The notes under the pieces: generated by a model | The model's input: the letters and a program-made list of their open reading frames with translations, nothing else | What the model was told of the DNA's origin: nothing | The model's database searches: none | Program-made: the position numbers and the translations under genes | Part shown: piece after piece, positions 1 to 63,736 of the stretch | Position numbering within the stretch: the stretch's first letter is position 1 | How the letters are laid out: each line of letters opens with the position of its first letter | DNA from: a virus | Taxonomy: Duplodnaviria > Caudoviricetes | Direction: 5' to 3' (one strand) | IMG/VR virus record: IMGVR_UViG_2931439988_000001 | Location: 120 to 64,119 of that record | Length of the DNA: 64,000 nucleotides

Positions 1-1384
1 GTTCGATTGATCTTCTTTTATCATCATTGGGTAGCTCGTTAATCAGTTCAGAGAATTCTTGTATTGCATCGTTGTAATCTCCGAATGACTTCGATTGCGG
101 CAAAGGAATTTTATCTAACAATTCCAAAATCTCAGCTTTACGTTTTCCATATCTTCTCATGGACAACTCGTAATGATGCTCTTCAATTTTGTTATGAAGA
201 TAATAATCATCGAAAATCTTTTGTTCTGCATTGTTAATGTTGGCAAGTTCATCTTGAAGTTTAGAGAATGAATTATTGTTGTCAGAATCTTCTTTCATTT
301 CAGGTATCAAAGATTCATAACCATATTTTTTCTCTGCCATGTTAGCAATCAGATTTATGACTGCTGCTTCAAAACTTTCTTGATCATGGTTTGGACTGGA
401 GCAAGATATCGCTCCCATGGATGTTTTACGGCTACATACATATTTTCTCTTCTGTTTAGAATGGGACATGTAACGAGAATGCATTTTAGATCCGCACTCT
501 GGACAGATAAGGACAGAAGTGAGTAGTTGCCTTTCTTTTCCTTTCCATGCTTTGTCTTTCCCAAACAGCGTGGATTGGATGTAATTGAAATCATCCCAAG
601 AGACGAGAACAGGGCACACAAGGAGCTTATAGCATTCACCCTTCCAACGTTGCATAGCAGCGTAAGTTGGGTTTGTAAGCATATACCTAACCCTTCTAGC
701 GGTCCATTCTTTACCTGTCAGCGAGTAAACCTTTTGTTCATTTAACCATCTAGCTATCAGATATGGTCCTTTTCCTAGCTTCGCCATTCGAAAAATCTCT
801 CTTACGTAATAAGCACGTTCCGGAACTTCCTCGAATCCCATACCATCTGCTGTTTTCACAAAGCCGAATGGGGCAGGACCGCCATTCCAGCGACCTTTCT
901 TAGCGTTTGTTTCTTTGGAATCGTTTACTATCTCGCTGAGGTTGTCTGAATAATATTCATTGAGATCGACAAAGAAGCCAGCAACAAGACGTCCATTTGG
1001 TGTACTAAAATCCACAAACTCAGAAGCTGAACAAATATCAACTTGGTGAGAATTCAGGATTCCCTGTAACTCTTGAAAGTCTTTCTTTAGCCTTGTTAGA
1101 CGAGATAGATTGAAGAAAATCATCTTTCTCACTTTGGGTCTATCCTCAATGCATTTCAAAGCATCCATCAAGCCAGGACGTTTTGTGTACTTAATTCTAA
1201 AACCGGAGTAGTCAATATCTTTAAATACTTTGACTAGTTTAAAATTGTTGGACTCACAAAACTGTTCAATCTTTCTTAATTGCGTAAGCTCCGATATATC
1301 CTCTTTATCTTGACGCTGATCACTTTGTCGTATATATCCGATCGCTTCTATTTCTTCATTCGTTTCACGGGCTCGTACCACCAT
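1..1384 (-). CDS. Large serine recombinase (prophage integrase), 3' end outside window
   Basis: Hand translation from ATG 1384 (RBS AAAGGAGGTG) stays open to base 1: MVVRARETNEEIEAIGYIRQSDQRQ (YxRxS catalytic motif), FFNLSRLTR, GRWNGGPAPFG recombinase domain, CPECG...YVC zinc ribbon, then coiled coil. Confidence 0.95.
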   Translation of the reverse strand, partial: MVVRARETNEEIEAIGYIRQSDQRQDKEDISELTQLRKIEQFCESNNFKLVKVFKDIDYSGFRIKYTKRPGLMDALKCIEDRPKVRKMIFFNLSRLTRLKKDFQELQGILNSHQVDICSASEFVDFSTPNGRLVAGFFVDLNEYYSDNLSEIVNDSKETNAKKGRWNGGPAPFGFVKTADGMGFEEVPERAYYVREIFRMAKLGKGPYLIARWLNEQKVYSLTGKEWTARRVRYMLTNPTYAAMQRWKGECYKLLVCPVLVSWDDFNYIQSTLFGKDKAWKGKERQLLTSVLICPECGSKMHSRYMSHSKQKRKYVCSRKTSMGAISCSSPNHDQESFEAAVINLIANMAEKKYGYESLIPEMKEDSDNNNSFSKLQDELANINNAEQKIFDDYYLHNKIEEHHYELSMRRYGKRKAEILELLDKIPLPQSKSFGDYNDAIQEFSELINELPNDDKRRSIE

Positions 1385-1417
1385 ATATTTCACCTCCTTT
1401 CCAGAGGCCCGTAAATT

Positions 1418-2152
1418 CTAATATCTCCGTCTAACTTCTACAACTTTACCGATAATTTCAACTTTAGATGCATCAACTATAGTCGGCTGCAGCTTAGGGT
1501 TTGAAGGCATCAATATGCAAATCTCATTTTGACACTTAATTCTTTTTACTGTTGCTGTTTCTCCATCGATAGCTACTACAACAATATCATTAGCGCTCAC
1601 TTCTTTTTGCTTAACACAAACCACAATATCACCTTCAACAATATTATCCCCAATCATGCTATCGCCCTTGATCCGAAGACAAAATGCTTGCTTTCCTCTA
1701 ACGACTGAAGCATTAACATATTCCATATCTTCTATATGTTCAATTCTGTCAATAGGTTGTCCCGCAGCAATAGAACCGAGAACTGGCACCTTTACGAGAT
1801 TTTCAGCTATGTATTGTGCAGGCGTTTCCTCTATTACTAATGCTTGGGCATATTCTTTTTTGAGATCTTTCAATTTATCCAATTTCATGAACTTCTCTTT
1901 TATTTCTTCAGGAGCTTTTTCGATTAGTGCAGCAGTCAATAGTTTTTCAACATCTCCACCTGTTACAGCAGCGAGTGCTCTATTGAGTTCTGAGGTTGCT
2001 GGGTTGTCTGTTTTCCCATTTTGCAATTGGCTAATATAGCCTTTGCTCACCTTATATCCGTGACCCTCAAGCCGTTCAGATATCTCGGATAGGGATAACC
2101 CGGATTTTTTTATGTAATCTTTCAGCAACTCATAGTAAGTCAATTGAGACAC
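1418..2152 (-). CDS. LexA/CI-like phage repressor (HTH + S24 self-cleaving peptidase)
   Basis: N-terminal XRE HTH; GSIAAGQP Ala-Gly cleavage site, KGDSMI catalytic Ser, TVKRI catalytic Lys. Confidence 0.93.
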   Translation of the reverse strand: MSQLTYYELLKDYIKKSGLSLSEISERLEGHGYKVSKGYISQLQNGKTDNPATSELNRALAAVTGGDVEKLLTAALIEKAPEEIKEKFMKLDKLKDLKKEYAQALVIEETPAQYIAENLVKVPVLGSIAAGQPIDRIEHIEDMEYVNASVVRGKQAFCLRIKGDSMIGDNIVEGDIVVCVKQKEVSANDIVVVAIDGETATVKRIKCQNEICILMPSNPKLQPTIVDASKVEIIGKVVEVRRRY

Positions 2153-2169
2153 TCCTTTCGTTTGATTAC

Positions 2170-2248
2170 ATTGTACTAAACGTTTCAGTAATAAGTCAAC
2201 ATTATTTATGTTTTAACTATTGACTGAAACGATATAAGCGTTTAGTAT
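2170..2248. promoter_or_regulatory. Divergent lysis/lysogeny switch promoters with operator half-sites
   Basis: + strand TTGACT(2220)-17-TAGTAT; - strand TTGACT-18-TACAAT; repeated ACT(G)AAACG/CGTTT(C)AGT motifs overlapping both. Confidence 0.6.
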
Positions 2249-2289
2249 TTGGTTAACGATATCGTTTACTGTTAAATAAACGGTAGGGG

Positions 2290-2586
2290 GTGATTGAAAA
2301 TATGAAAACGAAGTATGCGAACCTTTTGAGGGACGCGGTCGTTGAAAGCAACTTGACTTATTCGAAGATCATTGACAAATGCAAAGAAAAAGGCGTTTCT
2401 TTCTCTGGTTCTTATCTGAGTAAGCTATGCACTGGTTGGATGCCACCGCCGTCAGATGATATCAATAGAGCATTGGCGGAAGTCTTATCTCCTGTGTCTT
2501 CTATAACCTATGAAAAATTAGCTTTGGCGAAGTATAAGGAAATAATACCCGCAGATATATTGGAAGCAATAGCTGCTGGGCAATAA
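2290..2586 (+). CDS. Cro-like HTH regulator (start may be 2302)
   Basis: Divergent from the repressor; HTH resembles the repressor N-terminus (FSGSYLSKL...NRALAEV). Confidence 0.8.
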   Translation: MIENMKTKYANLLRDAVVESNLTYSKIIDKCKEKGVSFSGSYLSKLCTGWMPPPSDDINRALAEVLSPVSSITYEKLALAKYKEIIPADILEAIAAGQ

Positions 2587-2598
2587 AGGGAGGGCACC

Positions 2599-2733
2599 AT
2601 GAAACGCCTTGAAGAGATCCTCGGAGAAATGCAAAGTCTTGATGTAGATCCGTTGCGAATTGACGAAGAAATTAAAAAGCTTGAAAGTGAATTGTCAAAT
2701 TTCCTAAATCAGGAGGTTCAGCATGGTGAATAA
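2599..2733 (+). CDS. Small hypothetical protein, 44 aa
   Basis: RBS GGGAGG; MKRLEEILGEMQSLDVDPLRIDEEIKKLESELSNFLNQEVQHGE. Confidence 0.6.
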   Translation: MKRLEEILGEMQSLDVDPLRIDEEIKKLESELSNFLNQEVQHGE

Positions 2734-2845
2734 AAAGTTGTTGGAGCCGTATGAGCGTGAATTCATTAAGATTCTAGCAAGACAGGCTCGGCGCAACATG
2801 GAGAAGAAGTTACAAGGACTTCCTCAGAAAAAAACAGCTAATTGA
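2723..2845 (+). CDS. Small basic hypothetical protein, 40 aa
   Basis: RBS AGGAGG; MVNKKLLEPYERDFIKILARQARRNMEKKLQGLPQKKTAN. Confidence 0.6.
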   Translation: MVNKKLLEPYEREFIKILARQARRNMEKKLQGLPQKKTAN

Positions 2846-2877
2846 TTTGAATAAGAAATTTAGAAAGGAGCCTTGAA

Positions 2878-4017
2878 TTGAAGATCAAAATTGACCAAAT
2901 CAAAGTAAGCGATCGAATTCGTAAAGACTTCGGAGGAATCGAAGAACTGGCGAATGACATCGAACAAAACGGTCTCATTAATCCTATAGTAGTAACCCCA
3001 GATCATCAGTTAATTGCAGGAGAGCGCCGCTTGCGTGCTCATCAGTATCTGGGACGCAAAGAGGTTATAGTCCGAGTGATGGAAATCAGTGACTTTGAAC
3101 ATCAGCTTCGGCTTGAAATATCTGAGAACGAGCACCGGAAAGAATTTACCTTCTCCGAAAGAGTTGAATGGGCTAAACGGCTGGAAGAAGTCGAACGGAT
3201 AAAGGCCAAGGAACGGATGGCAGGAGGCAAGGAAAATGTTCCTGAGCAGCCTGCCGGACAGGTTCGCGATATTGTAGCTGATCAAGCAGGCTTTGGATCA
3301 GGTAGAACCTATGACAAAGCCAAGTTCATTATGGAAAACGCCACGCCGGAAATCATTCAGCAGCTTGACGCAGGGATCATTTCCACACACAAAGCATATG
3401 TGGAGACAAAAGATCGACTTGAAGCTGCTTTGCAAGAGGCCGAGGCTCGGGCTAACCAAGCAGAACAAGAGAAGGAAGAACTTCAGCGCCGTTACAAGGA
3501 TGCGATTCCAGCCGATCAGGTGGACGAAGCAGTAGCAGCGGCAGTAGAACGCCGAGATGAAGAGACAGAAGTTCTTCTCGAACAGAAAGCTCAGGAAGCT
3601 GAACGGAAGATTAAAGAGCGTGACCAATACTGGAAAGCCAAGCTTCAGGATGATGTCGAAACGGAGCGCCTAAAGGTTGATGAATTGAAAGCTGGCTATC
3701 AAAGGGCAAAGGAAGAACTGGAAACTCTTAAACTTCAGCAGCCCAGTGACTTCGATGAACAGTACGCTAACGCTCAGATGAAGAAGCTTCGTTTTGAAAC
3801 AGATTCCAACACGGCTCAAGTGAACTATCACGTTAAACAGTTCCTTCAAAAGGTAGGTATCACATCATTCATGCTTGGTGCAGTATCTGGAGCGAGTACA
3901 AGCGAGAAAAAACGGCTGTCAGAGAGTCTTGATATGCTTCAAACATTTATCGATCAAATGCGTCCAGCAATTAACTCCAGGAAGGTGGTAAACCCAAATG
4001 ACTTTAATGAATCCTAA
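2878..4017 (+). CDS. ParB/Srx N-terminal domain protein with long coiled coil
   Basis: IEELANDIEQNGLINPIVV...LIAGERRLRA, ENEHRKEF; RBS AAAGGAG. Confidence 0.88.
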   Translation: MKIKIDQIKVSDRIRKDFGGIEELANDIEQNGLINPIVVTPDHQLIAGERRLRAHQYLGRKEVIVRVMEISDFEHQLRLEISENEHRKEFTFSERVEWAKRLEEVERIKAKERMAGGKENVPEQPAGQVRDIVADQAGFGSGRTYDKAKFIMENATPEIIQQLDAGIISTHKAYVETKDRLEAALQEAEARANQAEQEKEELQRRYKDAIPADQVDEAVAAAVERRDEETEVLLEQKAQEAERKIKERDQYWKAKLQDDVETERLKVDELKAGYQRAKEELETLKLQQPSDFDEQYANAQMKKLRFETDSNTAQVNYHVKQFLQKVGITSFMLGAVSGASTSEKKRLSESLDMLQTFIDQMRPAINSRKVVNPNDFNES

Positions 4018-4426
4018 TCAGCCTGACTTCTTATCGGTTGTTGAAAGACAGATGCAGTTAACTGAAGCTCAAGGTATGGCGATACGCGGTTTGGTGGATG
4101 GCATCAGACAGATGCAAGAGGATGTAGCAGAAAAGGTTGGAGAAGTCCAAATGATGGTTCAGGAGGTCCGGGACAGCGTAACGCTGACGGATGCAGAGTG
4201 CTACCAACTCCAGTCTCTTGTCCGCAAGAAGTCAAACTCGTTAACAAAGGACAGGTATAAAGAGTCTGACGAGAAATTCAAGGTCCTGGTTGGTCGTTAT
4301 CGTAGGATGGTCTGGAGTAAACTGAAAGATCGGTTTGAGGTAGCGAAATACAGCCATGTACGGCGTATCGACTTTGATGACGCAGTTGATTTCATTAAGG
4401 AGTTTCGGCCGGAAGACTACATCTGA
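3998..4426 (+). CDS. ORF6C-domain (antirepressor-associated) protein
   Basis: C-terminal VWSKLKDRFEVAKYSHVRRIDFDDAVDFIKEF pattern. Confidence 0.75.
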   Translation: MTLMNPNQPDFLSVVERQMQLTEAQGMAIRGLVDGIRQMQEDVAEKVGEVQMMVQEVRDSVTLTDAECYQLQSLVRKKSNSLTKDRYKESDEKFKVLVGRYRRMVWSKLKDRFEVAKYSHVRRIDFDDAVDFIKEFRPEDYI

Positions 4427-4544
4427 TCTAATAGGAGTTGAAACCGATGAGATTAAAATTCATGACGCTTGACGATTTGGCGCGTATCTGGTCACACAAA
4501 CCTTTGCAACATGAAATTATTCAGAGAAACATTGCCAAAAAGAA

Positions 4545-4907
4545 ATGATGATTCGTGCTCAGAAGTTAATGCAAACCAGAATGTTGCGAAGAAAGATCAG
4601 GGATTTATGTGATGAGGCAATCGATGCGCTCTCAATGGAACTTAATATTAAATTCATCAAAAAGAAAATAAAAGTGCTCCGTAACGATCTTGAAAAGTTG
4701 GAACGTTCAATAGATAAGAACGCAGAATATGAAGGTCTGATCTGGAAAGAGCCATCAGGCTATAAGATTGAAGGGGCAGTGATTGGATTGTGTAAACACT
4801 GTGATAGAGAAGTATTCTCAGGCCAGAAGTTTCCTGATCCAAAAGAAGAAGGACTCTTTTGTAACTACTATTGCAGAAGAGTCTACCGCAACAACAGTAA
4901 CAAATGA
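4545..4907 (+). CDS. Hypothetical protein with C-terminal Cys motifs
   Basis: ORF in early operon; CKHC...FCNYYC. Confidence 0.6.
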   Translation: MMIRAQKLMQTRMLRRKIRDLCDEAIDALSMELNIKFIKKKIKVLRNDLEKLERSIDKNAEYEGLIWKEPSGYKIEGAVIGLCKHCDREVFSGQKFPDPKEEGLFCNYYCRRVYRNNSNK

Positions 4908-5005
4908 GTCCTTAAGTTAATCGTGCTACCAACACGATCATTTGAAAAACAATTCAACGGAATTATATCACGGAAATTAAATAATGCAAATAGGAGGTCT
5001 GCTCT

Positions 5006-6166
5006 GTGAAAGGAAACAAGGATTTCACTGTATGGGGCACAAGTCTTGCTGTTAGAGGAGATAAAGAAATATCTCATCCCACTTTCATTAGCATGTTAGA
5101 CATGATGAAAGGAAGAGGCTTCACTATTGGATCAGATCCACATATTGATCGTAATTACTCACTTCTTTCAAAAGATCATTTTGCAGGAAGTAAGGGTGAT
5201 CTGCTCTTCGTAGCAGAGAAATATAACTGTGGCGCAAAAATTGAATTCTATCAAGAAATAAATGTTGAGAATCGAAACGGTGGAAGATACGACTTTGATA
5301 AATTCGATAAGATGTCGTATCTGCTGCAAAAACGATTCTTGGTGGAAATAAAACACATGGAACATTTTTTGATGAGTGAAGGATACTCTTGTGACACTGA
5401 GCCAGTTTTGAAAACGTCCCACGAAAAGGTATTTCATGAACTCAACTCATCAAGCAGACATTGGAGTTCCGAAAATCTTCCTGGTTATAACGCTTTGGAC
5501 AAGGATGGGAAGAGAATATCCAATGGCGAAGTGAAGTATTTCAGAGATCGAAAAGGAACGCTCATGCGTGGCACTGTCTATCACAATATCAACAATATGT
5601 GGTGGACTATCCTGAATAAAGACACGTACAGAAACCTGGCATGTTTCGAATTATTTGACCTTACAACAAAACCTGAGAACAGTGTAAGAAAACTGTCGAA
5701 GAGATCAGGGCATCACAATCCCAAATCTAGGTTCGTTCCCACTGAAGAAAATTTAAAACAGTATAAGTCGTTAGCTAAGCAAGCAGGGAGGTTTGGTAGA
5801 GCAGATTTAGCTAATAGAGTATTGGTTTATCTGTATGAAATAAATTGGATGTCTCGTAAATTCGAGTTTATCAAGAAAGAAAATGGACGTCTTGGATTAG
5901 TAGAGACAGAAGGGAATCCATACTTCATGGGACAGCGTATTGGAGAAAGGAAGTATGATCCTCCCCAAGCAGTAAAGTTATACTCGCGCAACTTACCAAT
6001 GTCGAGTACAGAAGCATCATGGATTACAGGACTGCGTGACTATGTTACAGGTGGGAAGCCCACTATTTCAAAATGGTTCTGTAAGGATGGAAACGGAGAA
6101 GGTGGACAGGCTTACCTTTGGCCGGAGGTTAGGGAACAATTACTCCATATTGGAGCGCATGTATAA
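5006..6166 (+). CDS. Hypothetical phage early protein, 386 aa
   Basis: Long ORF, RBS AGGAGG, GTG start. Confidence 0.75.
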   Translation: MKGNKDFTVWGTSLAVRGDKEISHPTFISMLDMMKGRGFTIGSDPHIDRNYSLLSKDHFAGSKGDLLFVAEKYNCGAKIEFYQEINVENRNGGRYDFDKFDKMSYLLQKRFLVEIKHMEHFLMSEGYSCDTEPVLKTSHEKVFHELNSSSRHWSSENLPGYNALDKDGKRISNGEVKYFRDRKGTLMRGTVYHNINNMWWTILNKDTYRNLACFELFDLTTKPENSVRKLSKRSGHHNPKSRFVPTEENLKQYKSLAKQAGRFGRADLANRVLVYLYEINWMSRKFEFIKKENGRLGLVETEGNPYFMGQRIGERKYDPPQAVKLYSRNLPMSSTEASWITGLRDYVTGGKPTISKWFCKDGNGEGGQAYLWPEVREQLLHIGAHV

Positions 6167-6173
6167 GTAAGGA

Positions 6174-6581
6174 GTGACTGCATTGTCTCTACAAAAACAA
6201 TATACGCTAGGCGAGTTATACAGCCTAGCTGAACAGTGCAGTCACGATTATCCGGCTACACTGGCTCGGAAGATTGAGTTTTTGACTGAGGTACAGGTTA
6301 TTTTGGGCCGTAGAGCTGCTGAAGCAGTGAGAGACTATAAACGTATCTACGCCCAGAGAAAGCGTGAGTATGCAGAAGCATACCTTGCTGCTGGCAAAGA
6401 CAAAGCTCAGCGTGCGGAGCTGGCAATCATTGAGATTCGTCTTAAGGAAGCTGATGCTGAGGCAGACAAGGTTCGCTGGCATAACGCAGTGGAAAGTAAT
6501 GATCAGGTTATCAATTCGTTGAAATATAGCTTGAAGGTTCTTCTGGCGGAATTCAACAATCCAGCCAGTGGAAAGAGATAG
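6174..6581 (+). CDS. Hypothetical coiled-coil protein
   Basis: ORF directly upstream of the replication initiator. Confidence 0.7.
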   Translation: MTALSLQKQYTLGELYSLAEQCSHDYPATLARKIEFLTEVQVILGRRAAEAVRDYKRIYAQRKREYAEAYLAAGKDKAQRAELAIIEIRLKEADAEADKVRWHNAVESNDQVINSLKYSLKVLLAEFNNPASGKR

Positions 6582-6599
6582 TAATCAGAATTTTCCGGG

Positions 6600-7634
6600 G
6601 TGAGGAGAGTGGCAAGTCCCCAGTTAAAGAATGGATTCATCGGGATTGCTAATGAAATATGGGATGAGATAATCAGCCGGAAGTTCACAGAAAGGCAACA
6701 AAAGATTCTCAAGCTGATTCTAAGGCTGTCGTATGGCTGCCAGAAGAAAGAGGCAGTTATCCCCCTCTTGAAGCATTTTGAACTATGTGGAGTACGCATA
6801 CAAGACGCTAAAAAAGAGATCACTTACTTGGGACAATGTAAGGTGATTTATTGGGATGGCAAACAGGTCTATTCTCTCAACAAAAACTATGATGAATGGC
6901 GTGTCAGTCTTGTGAAAGAGTGGGATCGTGAGAAGTTTTCAGAACTTATCTCTTTAAATATAGGAAATAAAAAAGTTACGAAAAGTGTAACTCCAGAAAG
7001 TGAAGAGCATGACGAAAGTTACGAAAAGTGTAACTCCGAAGTTACGAAAAGTGTAACTGATGAGTTACGAAAAGTGGAAGTCGAAGAGGTCTCAATCCCT
7101 TGCGGGAGTAAGGCTGAAGGCACCTCTAAAGACATGTTTAAAGACAGTATTAAAGTTAGTTGTTGTTTAGAAGATCCCGATTCGGTCTTTAAACCATACA
7201 TGGGAAACCCGGATTCTGTTCCTAAAACCGAAGCAGATACTGACTCTGATCGGGAGGTTTCCCCAATGGAGTATCGCAATCAAGTTGCAGCTCGATATCT
7301 CCAGAGAAAAGGCAAGGGACTTGAGATTACTTTTAATGACGAGGATGCTGTCAATGAATTCATAGCTGAGAGGATTCCGCTCCAAACAGTTATCGATGGT
7401 ATTGACCAATCGTTTGACAATTTTAAACCCAAGAACAAATGGGATCAGATACGAAACCTGAGTTACTGTGCAACGGTTGTATATTCGTTGCATGCCAAAC
7501 GCGAAAAATCAAACACAGCGGAAATGCAAATAGCGACTATCATACCAGATGCGTCGATTGAAACGGTATCAAACGTGACCGCAGATGATTTAAAAGAGTT
7601 GCTTGCTAATCTAAGGTCAAAGCAAGGAGTGTGA
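6600..7634 (+). CDS. Phage replication initiator (lambda O-like N-terminus)
   Basis: GFIGIANEIWDEI...FTERQQKILKLILRLSYG, VYSLNKNYDEW; internal iteron repeats; upstream of helicase loader. Confidence 0.85.
   Translation: MRRVASPQLKNGFIGIANEIWDEIISRKFTERQQKILKLILRLSYGCQKKEAVIPLLKHFELCGVRIQDAKKEITYLGQCKVIYWDGKQVYSLNKNYDEWRVSLVKEWDREKFSELISLNIGNKKVTKSVTPESEEHDESYEKCNSEVTKSVTDELRKVEVEEVSIPCGSKAEGTSKDMFKDSIKVSCCLEDPDSVFKPYMGNPDSVPKTEADTDSDREVSPMEYRNQVAARYLQRKGKGLEITFNDEDAVNEFIAERIPLQTVIDGIDQSFDNFKPKNKWDQIRNLSYCATVVYSLHAKREKSNTAEMQIATIIPDASIETVSNVTADDLKELLANLRSKQGV
6974..7076. repeat. Four iterons AGTTACGAAAAGTGTAACT (probable replication origin)
   Basis: Exact 19-mers at 6974, 7017 and 7040, plus a 14-nt partial at 7063; each has AGTTAC/GTAACT inverted ends. 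Confidence 0.85.
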
Positions 7635-56839: not shown

Positions 56840-57511
56840 CTAATTTACTTTCTTCAACAGTTCCAAACTGTTATTCCTCACATTACCGACTTCCTTCGGC
56901 ACCTCATACGCTCTCATCTCTGAAGCTTGATATGGCTTGAGCAAGCCAAGCAGCGATTGGACATCATCATTGTCTCTTCCGAGCCACGCAGCTTCATCCT
57001 CAGGGCGCAAGATAACCGGCATACGATTATGAATGTCTTCCATAAGGCTGTTTGGTTCAGTTGTAATGATGGTGCAGGTACTCAGTCTGTTTCCATCTGG
57101 ATCTGTCCAGGTATCGTACAGGCCAGCAAGCGAGAATAAACGGTCATCCTTCATCAAAATGCGCATTGGACGCTTTGCCGATTCTTCTTTCTTCCACTCG
57201 TAAAATCCATTTGTCGGAATGATACAACGCTTTGAACTGATCAGGCGTTTAAAGGAAGGCTTCTCAGCCAGCGTCTCGGCCCGGGCATTAATCATCTTGT
57301 TCCCGATCTTGTCATCTTTGGCCCAAACGGGTACCAGGCCCCAGCGCAGCGAACCCAAGTGATTACCGTCTTTGCTCCCGATGATTGTCGGGATGTACTG
57401 CATAGGTGCAGCGTTGTAATTAGGTTTGTACTCAAAGCCATCAGCTATAGATGCATAGTACCTGTCCATGATAGCGTCTAAGGGATCAGTGATTGTGAAT
57501 CTACCACACAT
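56840..57511 (-). CDS. SOS response-associated peptidase (SRAP/HMCES family)
   Basis: MCGRF start after AGGAGG; YNAAP, RWGLVP, INARAET, GFYEW, IHNRMPVIL. Confidence 0.93.
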   Translation of the reverse strand: MCGRFTITDPLDAIMDRYYASIADGFEYKPNYNAAPMQYIPTIIGSKDGNHLGSLRWGLVPVWAKDDKIGNKMINARAETLAEKPSFKRLISSKRCIIPTNGFYEWKKEESAKRPMRILMKDDRLFSLAGLYDTWTDPDGNRLSTCTIITTEPNSLMEDIHNRMPVILRPEDEAAWLGRDNDDVQSLLGLLKPYQASEMRAYEVPKEVGNVRNNSLELLKKVN

Positions 57512-57545
57512 ACAAAGCACCTCCTGTATTGTTCTTAATATATAA

Positions 57546-58403
57546 TCACAAGATAAATTGATCAAACACGGGGATACGCAGCAAGCCTGATTTGGTCCAG
57601 TTTCGCATTTTAACTCTTGCCTGAATTCGAGGTTCAAGGTAAACGTTGTTCTTGTCTTCACCTGTCACGAGCTGCTGACACACTCCGCGGAAAGCCTGCT
57701 TATGTTTTGGACTTGGACCATGCTCAATGATCCCTACTGGGCGCATCTTGCCTGACGGATCTGGAACAGCAGCGAGCCATCCAAACTCAGATTTCTTATA
57801 TCCTGTGATGAACACATCGGCGTAGGACCAGTTAATAACCTTCAACCACTCTCTGGACCGCCTGCTAACGTACTGGCTGTCCTTACGCTTGCCAACTACA
57901 CCTTCCATACCCATAGTCTCTATTTGGCTATACAATTCTTCTCCAGCGCCTTCAATGTAGGGTACAATCCCAAAGTTTCTGGAGGGAAGTGTGAGGCCTC
58001 GGAGAATTGCTTTGCGTTCCATGAGGGGGAGTTTACGCAGATCCTGACCCTTGTACTGCAAGATATCAAATATGGCGAACGTGGCCGGTAAAGTCTTGGT
58101 GAGCTGCTGAACCTTTGAATGCTGCCGAGTGCTGAACCGGCTCATGACTGCTTCGAAATCATTCAATCCCGTTGTCGGATCGGCGCATGCTACTTCACCG
58201 TCCAAAATGATATCAGAGTCAAAAGGAAAAAGTAATTCGGGATACTGGCGTGTACATTCATTGTTGTGACGTGTATATAACCGGACATTGCCGGACTGTT
58301 GCGAATATATCAACCGATGTCCATCAACTTTCGGCTCAAAAATAAAATCCGAATGGGAGAAGGGACCCGGTGCTGTTTCAAGTAACATAGGACTAATGAA
58401 CAT
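57546..58403 (-). CDS. Minimal ATP-dependent DNA ligase
   Basis: EPKVDGHR (KxDG), ILDGEV, FDIL, EGVVGKR..S.Y...RS..WLKV. Confidence 0.92.
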   Translation of the reverse strand: MFISPMLLETAPGPFSHSDFIFEPKVDGHRLIYSQQSGNVRLYTRHNNECTRQYPELLFPFDSDIILDGEVACADPTTGLNDFEAVMSRFSTRQHSKVQQLTKTLPATFAIFDILQYKGQDLRKLPLMERKAILRGLTLPSRNFGIVPYIEGAGEELYSQIETMGMEGVVGKRKDSQYVSRRSREWLKVINWSYADVFITGYKKSEFGWLAAVPDPSGKMRPVGIIEHGPSPKHKQAFRGVCQQLVTGEDKNNVYLEPRIQARVKMRNWTKSGLLRIPVFDQFIL

Positions 58404-60660: not shown

Positions 60661-60993
60661 ATGAGCATCAAGTTGGGAGGAAACGGATTGTTTGAGTCGT
60701 CGCGGATGATGTTGCCTGAGCACAAGGAGGCCTGGTTGACTCACATCAAGGAACAGAAAAGACGTGTGAAACCGGAATTAGATGAGCAGGAGTTACAAAG
60801 GGTAAGTGAAGTGTTGGGCGAATCATATAGTAATAGTTGCACCGTTGATTTGGTGTTATTCAATCCATTCTATGATGATCATGTATCCGGTGTGGTTGTG
60901 GGGTTAGACGTTTCAACACGTCGAGTTAAGTTGATGTTAGATGAAGAGTATAGATGGATAGCATTGACTGAAATTATATCTTCATCTGTATAG
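60661..60993 (+). CDS. YolD-like protein
   Basis: FESSRMMLPEHKEA...KPELDEQEL; SOS-box operon. Confidence 0.88.
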   Translation: MSIKLGGNGLFESSRMMLPEHKEAWLTHIKEQKRRVKPELDEQELQRVSEVLGESYSNSCTVDLVLFNPFYDDHVSGVVVGLDVSTRRVKLMLDEEYRWIALTEIISSSV

Positions 60994-61075
60994 CATTTGT
61001 ATGAATTTGGCTATGGAATTGCCACATTGTCCTTTATAATAACTTTAAAAGTTATTTCTATTAGGATGGTGCGGA

Positions 61076-61786
61076 TTGAACACAGTTATTTATATTTCTC
61101 TCGGATTTTTTGATGCTCTTGCAATGCTCTTAATCATCTTAAAGCTATATATGTTACCGGTTCGAGAGTATGCAGGCAAGATATTTGTCTTCGTTATTTT
61201 TATAGCCTCATTCTCATACATGATGCGAATAACTTTGGGCATGCCCAAGCTAGATTTACCTTTTCAATATATTTTCTTCATACTTTTTTTACGTTTAGGA
61301 ATGGAATTGAAGCCGCATATATCTTCATTTATCGCAGGTGCTGGGATATCAGCTTATGCAGCAATACAGATGGGTATTTTTCATATATTTGAATGGTTAG
61401 ATGTAATGCATATTGGTGTAGTGCAACAAAATGAAGGCAGCCTGGTTTATTTATTGCAATCGTCTTCAATACTAGTTGCCTATTTAATTTGTTTTGTTTT
61501 TTCAATTTTTGATTTTGGATTCTCATTCATTATAAGACCTCCGCATGACTTCATAACAAAAGAAAATTATCTTTCTAAAACCAATATTCCGTTCTTAATC
61601 GGTACAACTATTTCGGCCATTACAATCTGTATGACGTTAGTATTAGTGTATAGATCCGATCCAACAGGACTTCTATTCCTTGCAATTTCAACTTTTGGGG
61701 TATCCTATTTCTTTTCAGTAAGGAGGGAACGGGGTGATATTAGAACGGCTGTCGAGGCGTATCGCAATAAGCATAAAAACAGCTGA
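61076..61786 (+). CDS. Multi-TM protein resembling an AgrC sensor domain, with no kinase domain
   Basis: About 7 hydrophobic segments; ends 20 aa after the last TM; overlaps agrB. Confidence 0.65.
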   Translation: MNTVIYISLGFFDALAMLLIILKLYMLPVREYAGKIFVFVIFIASFSYMMRITLGMPKLDLPFQYIFFILFLRLGMELKPHISSFIAGAGISAYAAIQMGIFHIFEWLDVMHIGVVQQNEGSLVYLLQSSSILVAYLICFVFSIFDFGFSFIIRPPHDFITKENYLSKTNIPFLIGTTISAITICMTLVLVYRSDPTGLLFLAISTFGVSYFFSVRRERGDIRTAVEAYRNKHKNS

Positions 61787-62261
61787 TCCGGAAGGTCCTG
61801 GAACAGTTGAGGTATTGGAGTACGAGCTAGGACTGCGTCTTAATTGGTATACTGGTTTGTTGCTTACAATCATTCTAGGATTGACGTTCGGTACTTTTAT
61901 TGGGGCTTTGATTACTTTGTTTTCATTCGTTATATTGAGGAAGTTTTCAGGTGGAGTACACTTGCCGATTACGTTATGCTCTATCGCAACTGGTATTGTA
62001 GCAGCTCTTGTTCCGTTGATTAATTTGAATTTCGAAGCAATTCTTCTATTAAATACAGTAAGTCTCATTATTGTATTGTTGTATGCACCAAATGAATTTG
62101 AGTATGTTAATCCGACATCGTGGGATCAGTGGTTAAAATGGATTTCTGCTGCATTAGTGGCTGCGAATTTCGTAATTAAGTCTCCAGAAATAACATTGGC
62201 ATTCTTTATTCAAGCAATTCTAATTCTTCCAGTATGGACAAAACCTGAAGGAGGTGGTTAA
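61734..62261 (+). CDS. agrB: AgrB-family peptide-processing membrane protein
   Basis: LEYEL...LRKFSGGVHLPITLC (R, GGxH, C conserved), LYAP; RBS AGGAGG. Confidence 0.9.
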   Translation: MILERLSRRIAISIKTADPEGPGTVEVLEYELGLRLNWYTGLLLTIILGLTFGTFIGALITLFSFVILRKFSGGVHLPITLCSIATGIVAALVPLINLNFEAILLLNTVSLIIVLLYAPNEFEYVNPTSWDQWLKWISAALVAANFVIKSPEITLAFFIQAILILPVWTKPEGGG

Positions 62262-62262
62262 A

Positions 62263-62385
62263 TTGAATAAAAATATAGCAAGAGCGCTATCTATGGACCT
62301 AACAAAAGGGGCAAAGAAGTCTTCCAAGAAACGCAAAAGCATCGTTGGAGCGATGAAAATGCCAGAAGAATTGAAAAAGAAGTGA
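62263..62385 (+). CDS. AgrD-like propeptide, 40 aa, no Cys (absent from ORF track)
   Basis: RBS AAGGAGGTG, TTG start; MNKNIARALSMDLTKGAKKSSKKRKSIVGAMKMPEELKKK; PxEL tail. Confidence 0.75.
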   Translation: MNKNIARALSMDLTKGAKKSSKKRKSIVGAMKMPEELKKK

Positions 62386-62388
62386 TCC

Positions 62389-63117
62389 TTGATGAATGAT
62401 CAATTAATAATAGGTATACAAGTCCAAAGCGATGGCTCTTACGGGCCTCGCTTTTCCTTTTCCGAGAATGATATTATGGGCATTGAAATGTGGAAGCCAT
62501 CCAAAAATTACAATGTCCCATTTTTTTATACAAGAACGGGGAACTTTACTGTGCTTACAACGTTGAACGCATGCGAACTGGCTTTCCCAAACTTTAAATT
62601 TCTTGATGGATCAAATCTAGTGAATATAGATAACATCGAACGAGTACTGACTGGTTCATATGGTGGAATTGCGTACTTTAAAGACGATATACATACCGGA
62701 ATCAACCAGAAGAATCTCAAAGTCTGGAAAGATATTGTAGATGAAGTGAGACAGTTAAAGAAGGACAACAGGCAGATTTTTGGTGTAGAAATAGTGGAGA
62801 ACGGTCAGTTATCAACAAGTGGATTCTTTGACGCTTGTGATATTTACTATATAGATATGTGGGAGCCTAAAGCCAACTATTATGTACCTCGATTCCACAC
62901 AAGCAAAGGTCTTTTCACAGTTGGACTGACATACAAAGCTTGTGCTGAGGCTATGCCATACCTCTATCCTGCTCATAATGGTAACCTGGTCAATCCATAT
63001 TGGATCGAGAGAATTGATGAGCAGATATTTGGCTCTACAGCAATTTTTAAAGAATCTGATTATAGAGTTACTGTGGCGAGAAGTAAATTAAAAGCTCTAA
63101 AAGGAATCATCAATTAG
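62389..63117 (+). CDS. Tandem LytTR-like domain protein with no receiver domain
   Basis: Two homologous halves: DIMGIEMW.P..NY.VP.F.T...GSNLVNIDNIERV and DIYYIDMW.P..NY.VPRFHT...HNGNLVNPYWIERI. Confidence 0.75.
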   Translation: MMNDQLIIGIQVQSDGSYGPRFSFSENDIMGIEMWKPSKNYNVPFFYTRTGNFTVLTTLNACELAFPNFKFLDGSNLVNIDNIERVLTGSYGGIAYFKDDIHTGINQKNLKVWKDIVDEVRQLKKDNRQIFGVEIVENGQLSTSGFFDACDIYYIDMWEPKANYYVPRFHTSKGLFTVGLTYKACAEAMPYLYPAHNGNLVNPYWIERIDEQIFGSTAIFKESDYRVTVARSKLKALKGIIN

Positions 63118-63118
63118 C

Positions 63119-63141
63119 AAACCCGGGGGAACCGGGTTTTT
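63119..63141 (+). terminator. Intrinsic terminator closing the Agr-like operon
   Basis: AAACCCGG-GGGAA-CCGGGTTT + TT. Confidence 0.8.
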
Positions 63142-63403: not shown

Positions 63404-63622
63404 TCACTTCGTTAGTACTTCCCACTCATACAGCTGTTCCATTTGAATATCTAGGATCATCGCGGCTAGGTACAAAGCTTCTACATTCATAGGGCGCTGA
63501 CTTGTCGCGAAAAACGAGACCATTCTTTTGGACCAACCCGTACGACGAGAGAATTCGGCTTGGGTCATTTGGCGGTGATCAAGCCAGTACTGAAGTAAGC
63601 ATCTCCCTCGGATTATTTCCAC
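63404..63622 (-). CDS. Small XRE HTH protein
   Basis: GRCLLQYWLDHRQMTQAEFSRRTGWSKRMVS...QLYEW; RBS AAGGAG. Confidence 0.85.
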   Translation of the reverse strand: MEIIRGRCLLQYWLDHRQMTQAEFSRRTGWSKRMVSFFATSQRPMNVEALYLAAMILDIQMEQLYEWEVLTK

Positions 63623-63736
63623 CAAGAGTGCTCCTTCAACCATTTAGAGAGTTTAAATCAAATCGAAGTATAACATGTTCTGCAAAACAAGGTAAACAAC
63701 AGAAATTCGTAAAATACATCATAGGAGTGCTGCGTA

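Follow-up and report, generated by a model that had tools for sequence, protein, structure and literature searches.

We report that the DNA stretch analysed here, 64,000 nucleotides of the virus record IMGVR_UViG_2931439988_000001 (hereafter the window), carries a four-gene operon that resembles the agr quorum-sensing system of Gram-positive bacteria and encodes neither a histidine kinase nor a receiver domain. The window is nearly the entire IMG/VR provirus record of 64,119 bp. On its plus strand, positions 61076-63139 hold four tightly packed open reading frames (ORFs) followed by a hairpin-plus-T terminator; the ORFs encode a seven-helix membrane protein (7TM), an AgrB-type cysteine peptidase, a short precursor peptide and a protein made of two LytTR domains (Table 1). 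The identity of these four components, and the assignment of the cassette as a kinase-free Agr-like module, is close to certain. We further consider, with a probability of about 0.5, that the cassette, an accessory operon close to the right end of a Paenibacillus prophage, is a self-contained, mobile variant of Agr-type signalling that operates free of phosphorylation by the mechanism proposed below. Cassettes of this type have already been sighted; what is new is the Lys-type precursor, with no conserved Cys or Ser, and the finding that its ring residues track the membrane protein.

Agr is the textbook peptide quorum-sensing system of Gram-positive bacteria; its defining features are a signal ring closed as a thiolactone or lactone, a histidine kinase and a LytTR regulator that is phosphorylated. 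Each of the four slots of agrBDCA has an occupant in the cassette, namely a processing enzyme, a precursor, a polytopic membrane protein and a LytTR DNA binder. It keeps the AgrB enzyme and the LytTR output, while the nucleophile of the ring appears to be replaced, along with the receptor and the step of transduction. Three of the four defining Agr features (the AgrD nucleophile, the AgrC kinase and the AgrA receiver) are absent, and the fourth, AgrB, is present. For specialists, the surprise lies in an AgrB substrate lacking the Cys or Ser nucleophile and in a kinase-free relay, both of which are directly testable.

Components of the operon

A preliminary description of the stretch had reported four tightly coupled genes closed by one terminator, and this arrangement stands, with every ORF on the plus strand and the hairpin behind the last one. 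Its statement that no kinase or receiver sequence occurs in the window was borne out by a domain search of the whole 64,119-bp provirus record, in which no Response_reg, HATPase_c or HATPase_c_5 domain was found. Together with the matches to PF04647 in the peptidase and to PF04397 in the regulator, this agrees with its designation of the locus as an Agr-like operon without kinase or receiver. The operon is also phage-borne, as described: it lies within the provirus record, and the same cassette is present in the sequenced phages Harrison, Paisley and Abouo.

Table 1. Features of the operon and its promoter region in the window (aa, amino acids)
Feature	Position	Strand	Remarks
Conserved promoter block	60995-61075	+	Conserved in six loci with non-aligning upstream flanks
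7TM membrane protein, 236 aa	61076-61786	+	phrog_15604 'membrane protein'; candidate peptide receptor or maturation/export partner
Divergent AgrB-type cysteine peptidase, 175 aa	61734-62261	+	PF04647, phrog_10353
Precursor peptide, 40 aa	62263-62385	+	TTG start after GGAGGTGG; 43 aa from GTG at 62254
Receiver-less tandem LytTR-LytTR protein, 242 aa	62389-63117	+	PF04397 twice; phrog_15081, two stretches
Terminator-like hairpin	63119-63139	+	8-bp stem with 5 GC pairs, then T run; closes the operon

The AgrB-type product matched PF04647 with an E-value of 4e-11 (43 bits; cut-off, 23) and scored 15.6 bits against the NCBIfam AgrB equivalog (cut-off, 282). Because this score is far under the equivalog cut-off, we assign the protein to a divergent AgrB subfamily. 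The R/GGxH/C catalytic motif attributed to it earlier was recovered as R69, G73, G74, H76 and C82 (R..GG.H..C), all of which are invariant in an alignment of five cassette AgrBs.

The two LytTR-like halves seen earlier in the last product correspond to two matches to PF04397, and no Response_reg domain was found in this protein with Pfam. Its LytTR fold, on which the earlier interpretation depended, was supported by structure comparison: the AlphaFold2 model (predicted local distance difference test score, pLDDT, 90.7) matched the LytTR domains of a B. cereus regulator, S. aureus AgrA and S. pneumoniae ComE with Z-scores of 11.0-12.8 and root-mean-square deviations of 2.5-3.7 Å over about 100 residues, the next unrelated match reaching a Z-score of at most 4.6. 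A phmmer search of PDB sequences gave chance matches only. Homologues carry the domain either singly (100-127 aa) or doubly (228-252 aa), and a start at the ATG at 62392 would give the window protein its 241-aa database form. In public records this protein is labelled 'peptidase' or 'dipeptidyl aminopeptidase' (Harrison gp41, Abouo gp47 and phrog_15081); judged by Pfam and the fold search, the 'peptidase' label looks like a propagated misannotation.

The 7TM protein had no match in Pfam, DUF2154 of HdrM included, or in NCBIfam. Its AlphaFold2 model (pLDDT 96; predicted template modelling score, pTM, 0.91) consists of seven long transmembrane helices and ends 4 residues past the last of them with a short basic tail, in accordance with the earlier remark that the protein stops just after its last transmembrane segment. 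The positive-inside rule predicts an N-out, C-in topology. A HMMER scan of 1.84 billion representatives yielded 97 related clusters, nearly all of 215-240 aa and none fused to a kinase; the protein is therefore not a truncated kinase, a possibility that the preliminary description had raised. The family is present in 189 of 301 sampled Paenibacillaceae species genomes, with up to eight copies in some, and the open frames listed there are mostly of about 215-280 aa, with a few longer ones of up to 426 aa (these long frames were not inspected).

Conserved polar residues of the 7TM protein (D13, S47, R51, D60 and Q128) lie in the membrane core and its outer half, and the conserved cytoplasmic face comprises P28 and a G-F-S-F-I-x2-P-P-H-D loop (G148..P155-P156-H157). 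Variation is greatest in the three outer loops, while the cytoplasmic loops and the outer polar cluster are conserved. Comparison of the model with the PDB (Foldseek, wide VIA search) returned generic helical bundles only, with a best E-value of 0.2 and a best Z-score of 7.0 (Pex3), and a profile search of PDB sequences gave no match. A search of the ESM Atlas with the model retrieved only unnamed Bacillota clusters. With hmmsearch and hhalign, no similarity was detected to three Paenibacillus AgrC-like sensor domains (probability 0.1%), a comparison limited by the fast divergence of such domains; the kinase loci that supplied them are not agr loci and have no AgrB nearby. A serine-hydrolase triad of S150, H157 and D158 was considered and rejected, as S150 is replaced by Thr, Ala or Ile in relatives.

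Distribution and conservation of the cassette

A degenerate DNA pattern for the loop G-F-S-F-[IV]-x2-P-P-H-[DE] retrieved 35 viral stretches from IMG/VR and 66 genomic stretches, which were scanned with purpose-built hidden Markov models; sampling by this loop biases the locus set toward 7TM members that keep the motif. Loci are cited below by number. The preliminary description had hinged on the co-occurrence of the four genes in other genomes, and the order 7TM-AgrB-peptide-LytTR indeed recurred in the majority of some 90 independent loci, much more often than chance would allow. The cassette was found in prophages of Paenibacillus and Brevibacillus, in isolated phages (Harrison, Paisley and Abouo) and in chromosomes. 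In Harrison and Paisley of P. larvae, and in Abouo of B. laterosporus, the four genes stand beside integrase and repressor genes. An AgrB gene lies directly downstream of the 7TM gene in 8 of 9 sampled 50%-identity clusters, very distant ones included, and at least six of these eight also have a LytTR gene. With its 7TM family in about 60% of the sampled Paenibacillaceae species, the cassette is widespread, common and uncharacterised, and it concerns both bee pathogens (P. larvae and B. laterosporus) and plant-associated Paenibacillus.

These data bear on whether the window cassette is a functionless remnant, decaying or hitch-hiking in its prophage. Some relatives have lost the LytTR gene (a fragment is left in G008) or have a split AgrB (L089), as would be expected of decay. 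The four ORFs are nevertheless intact in the window, in relatives of 80-90% identity and in distant ones of 25-50% identity; omega is about 0.1-0.3, and the promoter and terminator are conserved. We regard a remnant as very improbable.

The LytTR gene is absent from eight loci that keep the 7TM-AgrB-peptide trio (L060, L067, L070, L075, L089, L095, L098 and L105), and orphan 7TM genes occur in L008 and L104. In two LytTR-less genomes, no LytTR of the cassette family was found anywhere in the genome. Two LytTR-less variants are present in the P. polymyxa group (L060/L105 and L095/L089), 50% identical in 7TM and 36% in AgrB; their rings, T-I-F and S-F-I, are each kept between two species, which resembles agr specificity groups.

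Mosaic cassettes were also observed: in pairs such as L037/L041, L024/L038 and L103/L079, one gene is 95-99% identical and the neighbouring gene only 70-79%, from which we conclude that cassettes recombine with one another within the operon.

Precursor peptide

The unannotated 40-aa propeptide of the preliminary description proved to be a real constituent of the cassette, its ORF being conserved in about 80 loci. In the window, the precursor has the core K-S-I-V-G followed by A-M-K-M-P-E-E-L-K-K-K, and contains no Cys. Complete cassettes share the C-terminal layout K-x3-G-x4-P-x-[EA]-L followed by basic residues, which a pattern search found in 82 of the 91 AgrB-bearing cassettes; the others are locus-end cuts or variants that keep K-x3-G, except for one Ser-type precursor in L089. 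Among the Lys-type precursors examined, the Lys is invariant and no position has a conserved Cys, Ser or Thr. Of the distinct tails, 60 of 62 carry I, V, F or L directly before the Gly.

The NCBIfam AgrD model TIGR04223 supplied a register for these tails. The window precursor did not match this model; the Abouo homologue reached 12.6 bits (cut-off, 19), its tail aligning to model positions 27-38, and the true Ser-type AgrD of L089 reached 28.9 bits, residues 17-47 aligning to positions 7-37. In this register, the hydrophobic residue is P1, the Gly is P1' and the invariant Lys is P4. The ring nucleophile of the L089 AgrD, a Ser, is at P5, and the Lys of the Lys-type precursor thus stands one position C-terminal to it. 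A thiolactone from Cys(P5) to P1 and a lactam from the Lys(P4) N-zeta to P1 would both contain 16 ring atoms, because the Lys side chain is longer by three atoms, the equivalent of one backbone residue.

As far as we could find, the Lys-type precursor is undescribed in the literature: our searches found no natural Lys-lactam product of an AgrB, and no study of the cassette beyond passing mentions. The autoinducing peptide characterised in P. polymyxa is encoded at another locus and has an ordinary Cys thiolactone ring (PMC12180512). An attempt to locate the P. polymyxa AgrD by pattern gave only a chance match inside an unrelated gene.

Two unusual loci concern the precursor. In L022 and L101 (Paenibacillus alvei DSM 29; reverse-complement positions 1872-2708), the precursor ORF runs in frame and stop-free into the tandem LytTR, giving 278 aa; either the precursor and LytTR are naturally fused there, or a stop codon has been lost. 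In L089 (Paenibacillus sp. BJ-4), a second, divergent cassette lies next to the Lys-type one, at 4164-5492 on the minus strand beside lexA. It contains a weaker 7TM homologue (E 1e-22), an AgrB split over two ORFs and the genuine Ser-type AgrD, and the pairing of this AgrD with a 7TM homologue indicates that the 7TM family also accompanies classical precursors.

Proposed mechanism and alternatives

We propose the following mechanism, which taken as a whole has an even chance of being right. The AgrB-like peptidase would recognise the AgrD-like tail of the precursor, as its family membership and the tail motif suggest, and would cut directly ahead of the invariant Gly, after the hydrophobic residue. 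The Lys, likewise invariant and located three residues upstream, would then resolve the acyl-enzyme to give a macrolactam from the Lys N-zeta to the C-terminus; Lys is proposed for this step because no Cys, Ser or Thr is conserved. On chemical grounds, this AgrB subfamily would resolve the thioester acyl-enzyme by aminolysis. After export, the peptide would be read by the co-encoded 7TM protein, which would act directly on the receiver-less LytTR protein, as in the streptococcal LytTR regulatory systems, and the LytTR protein would then bind direct repeats such as the tandem 12-mers in its own promoter.

Assignment of the 7TM protein as the peptide reader is based on its occupation of the AgrC slot in the operon, on its variable outer loops beside a conserved outer polar cluster and conserved cytoplasmic loops, and on covariation with the ring. 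There are 27 distinct ring tripeptides among 61 non-redundant cassettes. Over the 1,830 cassette pairs, a shared ring was predicted by 7TM identity with an area under the curve of 0.966, by LytTR identity with 0.944 and by AgrB identity with 0.937; in a joint logistic model, the weights were 2.28 for 7TM, -0.34 for AgrB and -0.03 for LytTR. The peptide gene is flanked by those of AgrB and LytTR, not by that of 7TM, yet the ring tracks 7TM best. These patterns make the 7TM protein a candidate receptor.

Copy number is a further consideration. In L081, a metagenome-assembled genome of Bacilli (minus strand, reverse-complement coordinates), five tandem 7TM genes at 514-4957 are followed by a single AgrB (4938-5450), a peptide (5455-5577) and a LytTR gene (5587-5952), with a second LytTR-like ORF at 6219-6599. 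This array may consist of receptors or of immunity proteins. The orphan paralogue of L008 (GCA_042793215.1, 4001-4669) stands without AgrB in a core chromosomal setting (YjfB-like, SprT, CmpA and Tex). Such tandem and orphan copies (L081; L008 and L104) fit receptors better than enzymes.

Several points weigh against sensing by the 7TM protein and direct control of LytTR. The 7TM protein has no detectable homology to AgrC-type sensor domains or to any solved structure, and its gene always abuts or overlaps agrB, which fits a biosynthetic complex too. The LytTR-less trios are under purifying selection: in two close pairs, omega is 0.16 and 0.22 for 7TM and 0.17 and 0.10 for AgrB. Because these trios are kept, the 7TM protein should have a LytTR-independent role or another partner. 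The association between ring and 7TM comes from pairs that lack phylogenetic independence and can be taken as suggestive only. A search of the prophage gave no further candidate LytTR site, and the product of the precursor could be linear.

Some of these points favour a different role, in which the 7TM protein would take part in producing the signal, through export, removal of the N-terminal leader or as a scaffold for AgrB, and would be required because the Lys-type precursor is unusual. The peptide would then be sensed elsewhere, by a host receptor or by LytTR after re-uptake, and LytTR would be an ordinary autoregulator in some cassettes. The 7TM gene is tied more tightly to AgrB than to LytTR, as the intact, selectively maintained trios attest; its overlap with agrB (53 nt in the window and 4-8 nt elsewhere) suggests coupled synthesis, and 7TM and AgrB diverge together (50% and 36% identity between L060 and L095). 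There is precedent in S. aureus, which needs a separate membrane protease, MroQ, to mature some autoinducing peptides. The invariant 7TM residues (S47, Q128, R51, D60, D13 and H157), however, form no recognisable intramembrane-protease motif, and no match to the Rce1/CPBP, rhomboid or S2P families was found in Pfam or NCBIfam. Five paralogues before one AgrB (L081) and orphans distant from any AgrB (L008 and L104) would be odd for a processing factor, and the ring residues track 7TM better than AgrB. We therefore consider this biosynthetic role possible but doubtful.

A third explanation is that the product is no diffusible signal and that a small modified peptide acts on the envelope as a weapon or in superinfection exclusion, with the 7TM protein conferring self-immunity and LytTR serving as a bacteriocin-type regulator. 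Bacteriocin loci are commonly under the control of LytTR regulators, and immunity genes often occur in several copies or as orphans. The 7TM gene shares this multi-copy or orphan occurrence, and the position of the cassette is typical of prophage accessory genes. Against this, the conserved core is very small, with four residues ahead of the cut, and the tail resembles that of AgrD; Pfam and NCBIfam revealed neither a transporter nor features of lantibiotics or class II bacteriocins in the cassette, and the many ring variants on a conserved scaffold resemble signalling specificity groups. We judge this explanation unlikely.

For signalling through the 7TM protein, a more specific proposal can be advanced only tentatively: that the cassette represents a new autoinducing class in which a chemically stable macrolactam from the Lys side chain to the C-terminus, isosteric with the 16-membered thiolactone, is read by phages and their Paenibacillus hosts through a 7TM receptor that directly controls a bare LytTR protein free of phosphorylation. 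If this is true, the Lys-lactam would be a new signal chemistry and a hydrolysis-resistant natural analogue of the synthetic lactam inhibitors of Agr, and the kinase-free relay would be a new one-step route from membrane to DNA. The ring variants would then be private channels of prophages that could feed into lysogeny or host behaviour, and the cassette would join arbitrium as a second family of phage-encoded peptide communication. Candidate outputs are lysogeny control, lysogenic conversion and interference between related phages or strains.

Promoter block

The block upstream of the operon contains a pair of tandem 12-mers at 61000-61011 and 61012-61023, which match at 9 of 12 positions and are a candidate LytTR site. 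A TATAAT at 61035-61040 has no acceptable -35 element, and a consensus scan found no sigma-70 type promoter in the block (60995-61075). A ribosome-binding-site-like AGGATGGTG is present at 61063-61071. Overlapping the -10 element is a perfect 9+9 palindrome at 61038-61056 (AATAACTTT, one base, AAAGTTATT), which is kept in five relatives and is a candidate operator for a dimeric repressor, possibly the helix-turn-helix (HTH) protein encoded at 63404-63643. No further copies of the 12-mer pair or of the palindrome beyond chance were found in the window. These elements, whose functions are predicted from the DNA, would fit an activator-dependent, repressible and self-contained operon, and with one promoter block and one terminator, co-transcription of the four genes is plausible. 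Another clade of the cassette (L006 and L042) has a plain TTGATT-N16-TATAAT promoter with no obvious repeats.

Comparison with known systems

Kinase-less agr-like cassettes were mentioned in passing by Hargreaves et al. 2014 (PMC3901668), and papers on P. larvae phages list the genes only as 'AgrB family protein' and 'membrane protein' (PMC4168068, PMC5056774). The closest described counterparts of the window cassette are Abouo gp44-47 (also in Davies and Emery) and Harrison and Paisley gp38-41, which have the same four families in the same order, a K-x3-G precursor and an integrase/repressor vicinity. The gene order corresponds family by family: 7TM (phrog_15604), AgrB (phrog_10353), the K-x3-G precursor and LytTR (phrog_15081). 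The LytTR protein of the window is a fused tandem of 242 aa, in contrast to the single domain of 118-122 aa in the Abouo/Harrison type, and identity is only 28-38%. In the published notes on that type, the LytTR gene went unrecognised ('peptidase') and the missing Cys/Ser was unremarked.

The cassette has several features in common with agrBDCA of S. aureus and of P. polymyxa (PMC12180512): its AgrB-family peptidase contains the His/Cys pair, its precursor is short and combines an amphipathic or hydrophobic leader with a P-x-E-L tail, the same operon also encodes a membrane protein and a DNA-binding protein of the LytTR type, and specificity variants are numerous. Unlike agrBDCA, it has no AgrC kinase and no receiver on LytTR; its sensor-like gene comes first, a Lys at P4 of its precursor takes the place of the Cys or Ser at P5 of AgrD, and its AgrB and precursor fall under the curated NCBIfam cut-offs.

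The agr3 locus of the C. difficile phage phiCDHM1 (PMC3901668) is likewise phage-borne and demonstrates that a set of sensor, AgrB and AgrD can exist without its own response regulator. It has a full AgrC histidine kinase (445-453 aa) and no LytTR gene, the reverse of the window cassette. The LytTR-less trios, which speak against an exclusive anti-LytTR role of the 7TM protein, have a parallel in phiCDHM1, which also has sensor, AgrB and AgrD without a regulator.

The LytTR regulatory systems of streptococci consist of a LytTR regulator that lacks a receiver and a co-transcribed membrane protein that keeps it inactive (PMC6193735). The cassette shares with HdrRM and BrsRM (Zou et al. 2018, PMC6193735) the receiver-less LytTR protein encoded together with a membrane protein and the absence of phosphotransfer, and its tandem 12-mers are a candidate counterpart of their direct repeats upstream of the operon. 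In HdrRM and BrsRM, the regulator gene is first and neither AgrB nor precursor is present, whereas in the window the membrane gene is first and AgrB and the peptide lie between it and the regulator. The 7TM protein, with its seven helices, also has no Pfam similarity to the DUF2154 of HdrM.

Prophage context

The left end of the record encodes a serine integrase and an S24-type repressor, and a 2,298-aa ORF in its middle is probably the tape-measure gene, judged from size and position. The right arm consists of accessory genes, with the cassette almost last. In the window, this arm encodes a SOS-response associated peptidase (SRAP), an ATP-dependent DNA ligase and a YolD-like protein (56840-58403 and 60661-60993), and may be described as a DNA-damage-tolerance accessory arm reminiscent of SPbeta. 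YolD genes also occur close to the cassette elsewhere: immediately ahead of it in L006, and nearby in phage Abouo.

The closest chromosomal relative, L107 of P. amylolyticus, is 88% identical. Downstream of its cassette come the small HTH gene and the 87-aa gene that are also present in the window, and beyond them an ECF (extracytoplasmic function) sigma-like/anti-sigma-like pair, named by sequence only, that appears host-like. Because host-like genes follow the shared genes in L107, we place the right prophage boundary about 1 kb downstream of the cassette.

On the Logan contig L129, a 412-aa protein with HTH and tetratricopeptide repeats and a following 46-codon ORF (6174-7584) adjoin a copy of the cassette, and together they look like an RRNPP or arbitrium-like receptor-peptide pair. 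Because such a pair adjoins the cassette, this element, which also holds an Alp7A-type segregation gene, may carry two peptide systems.

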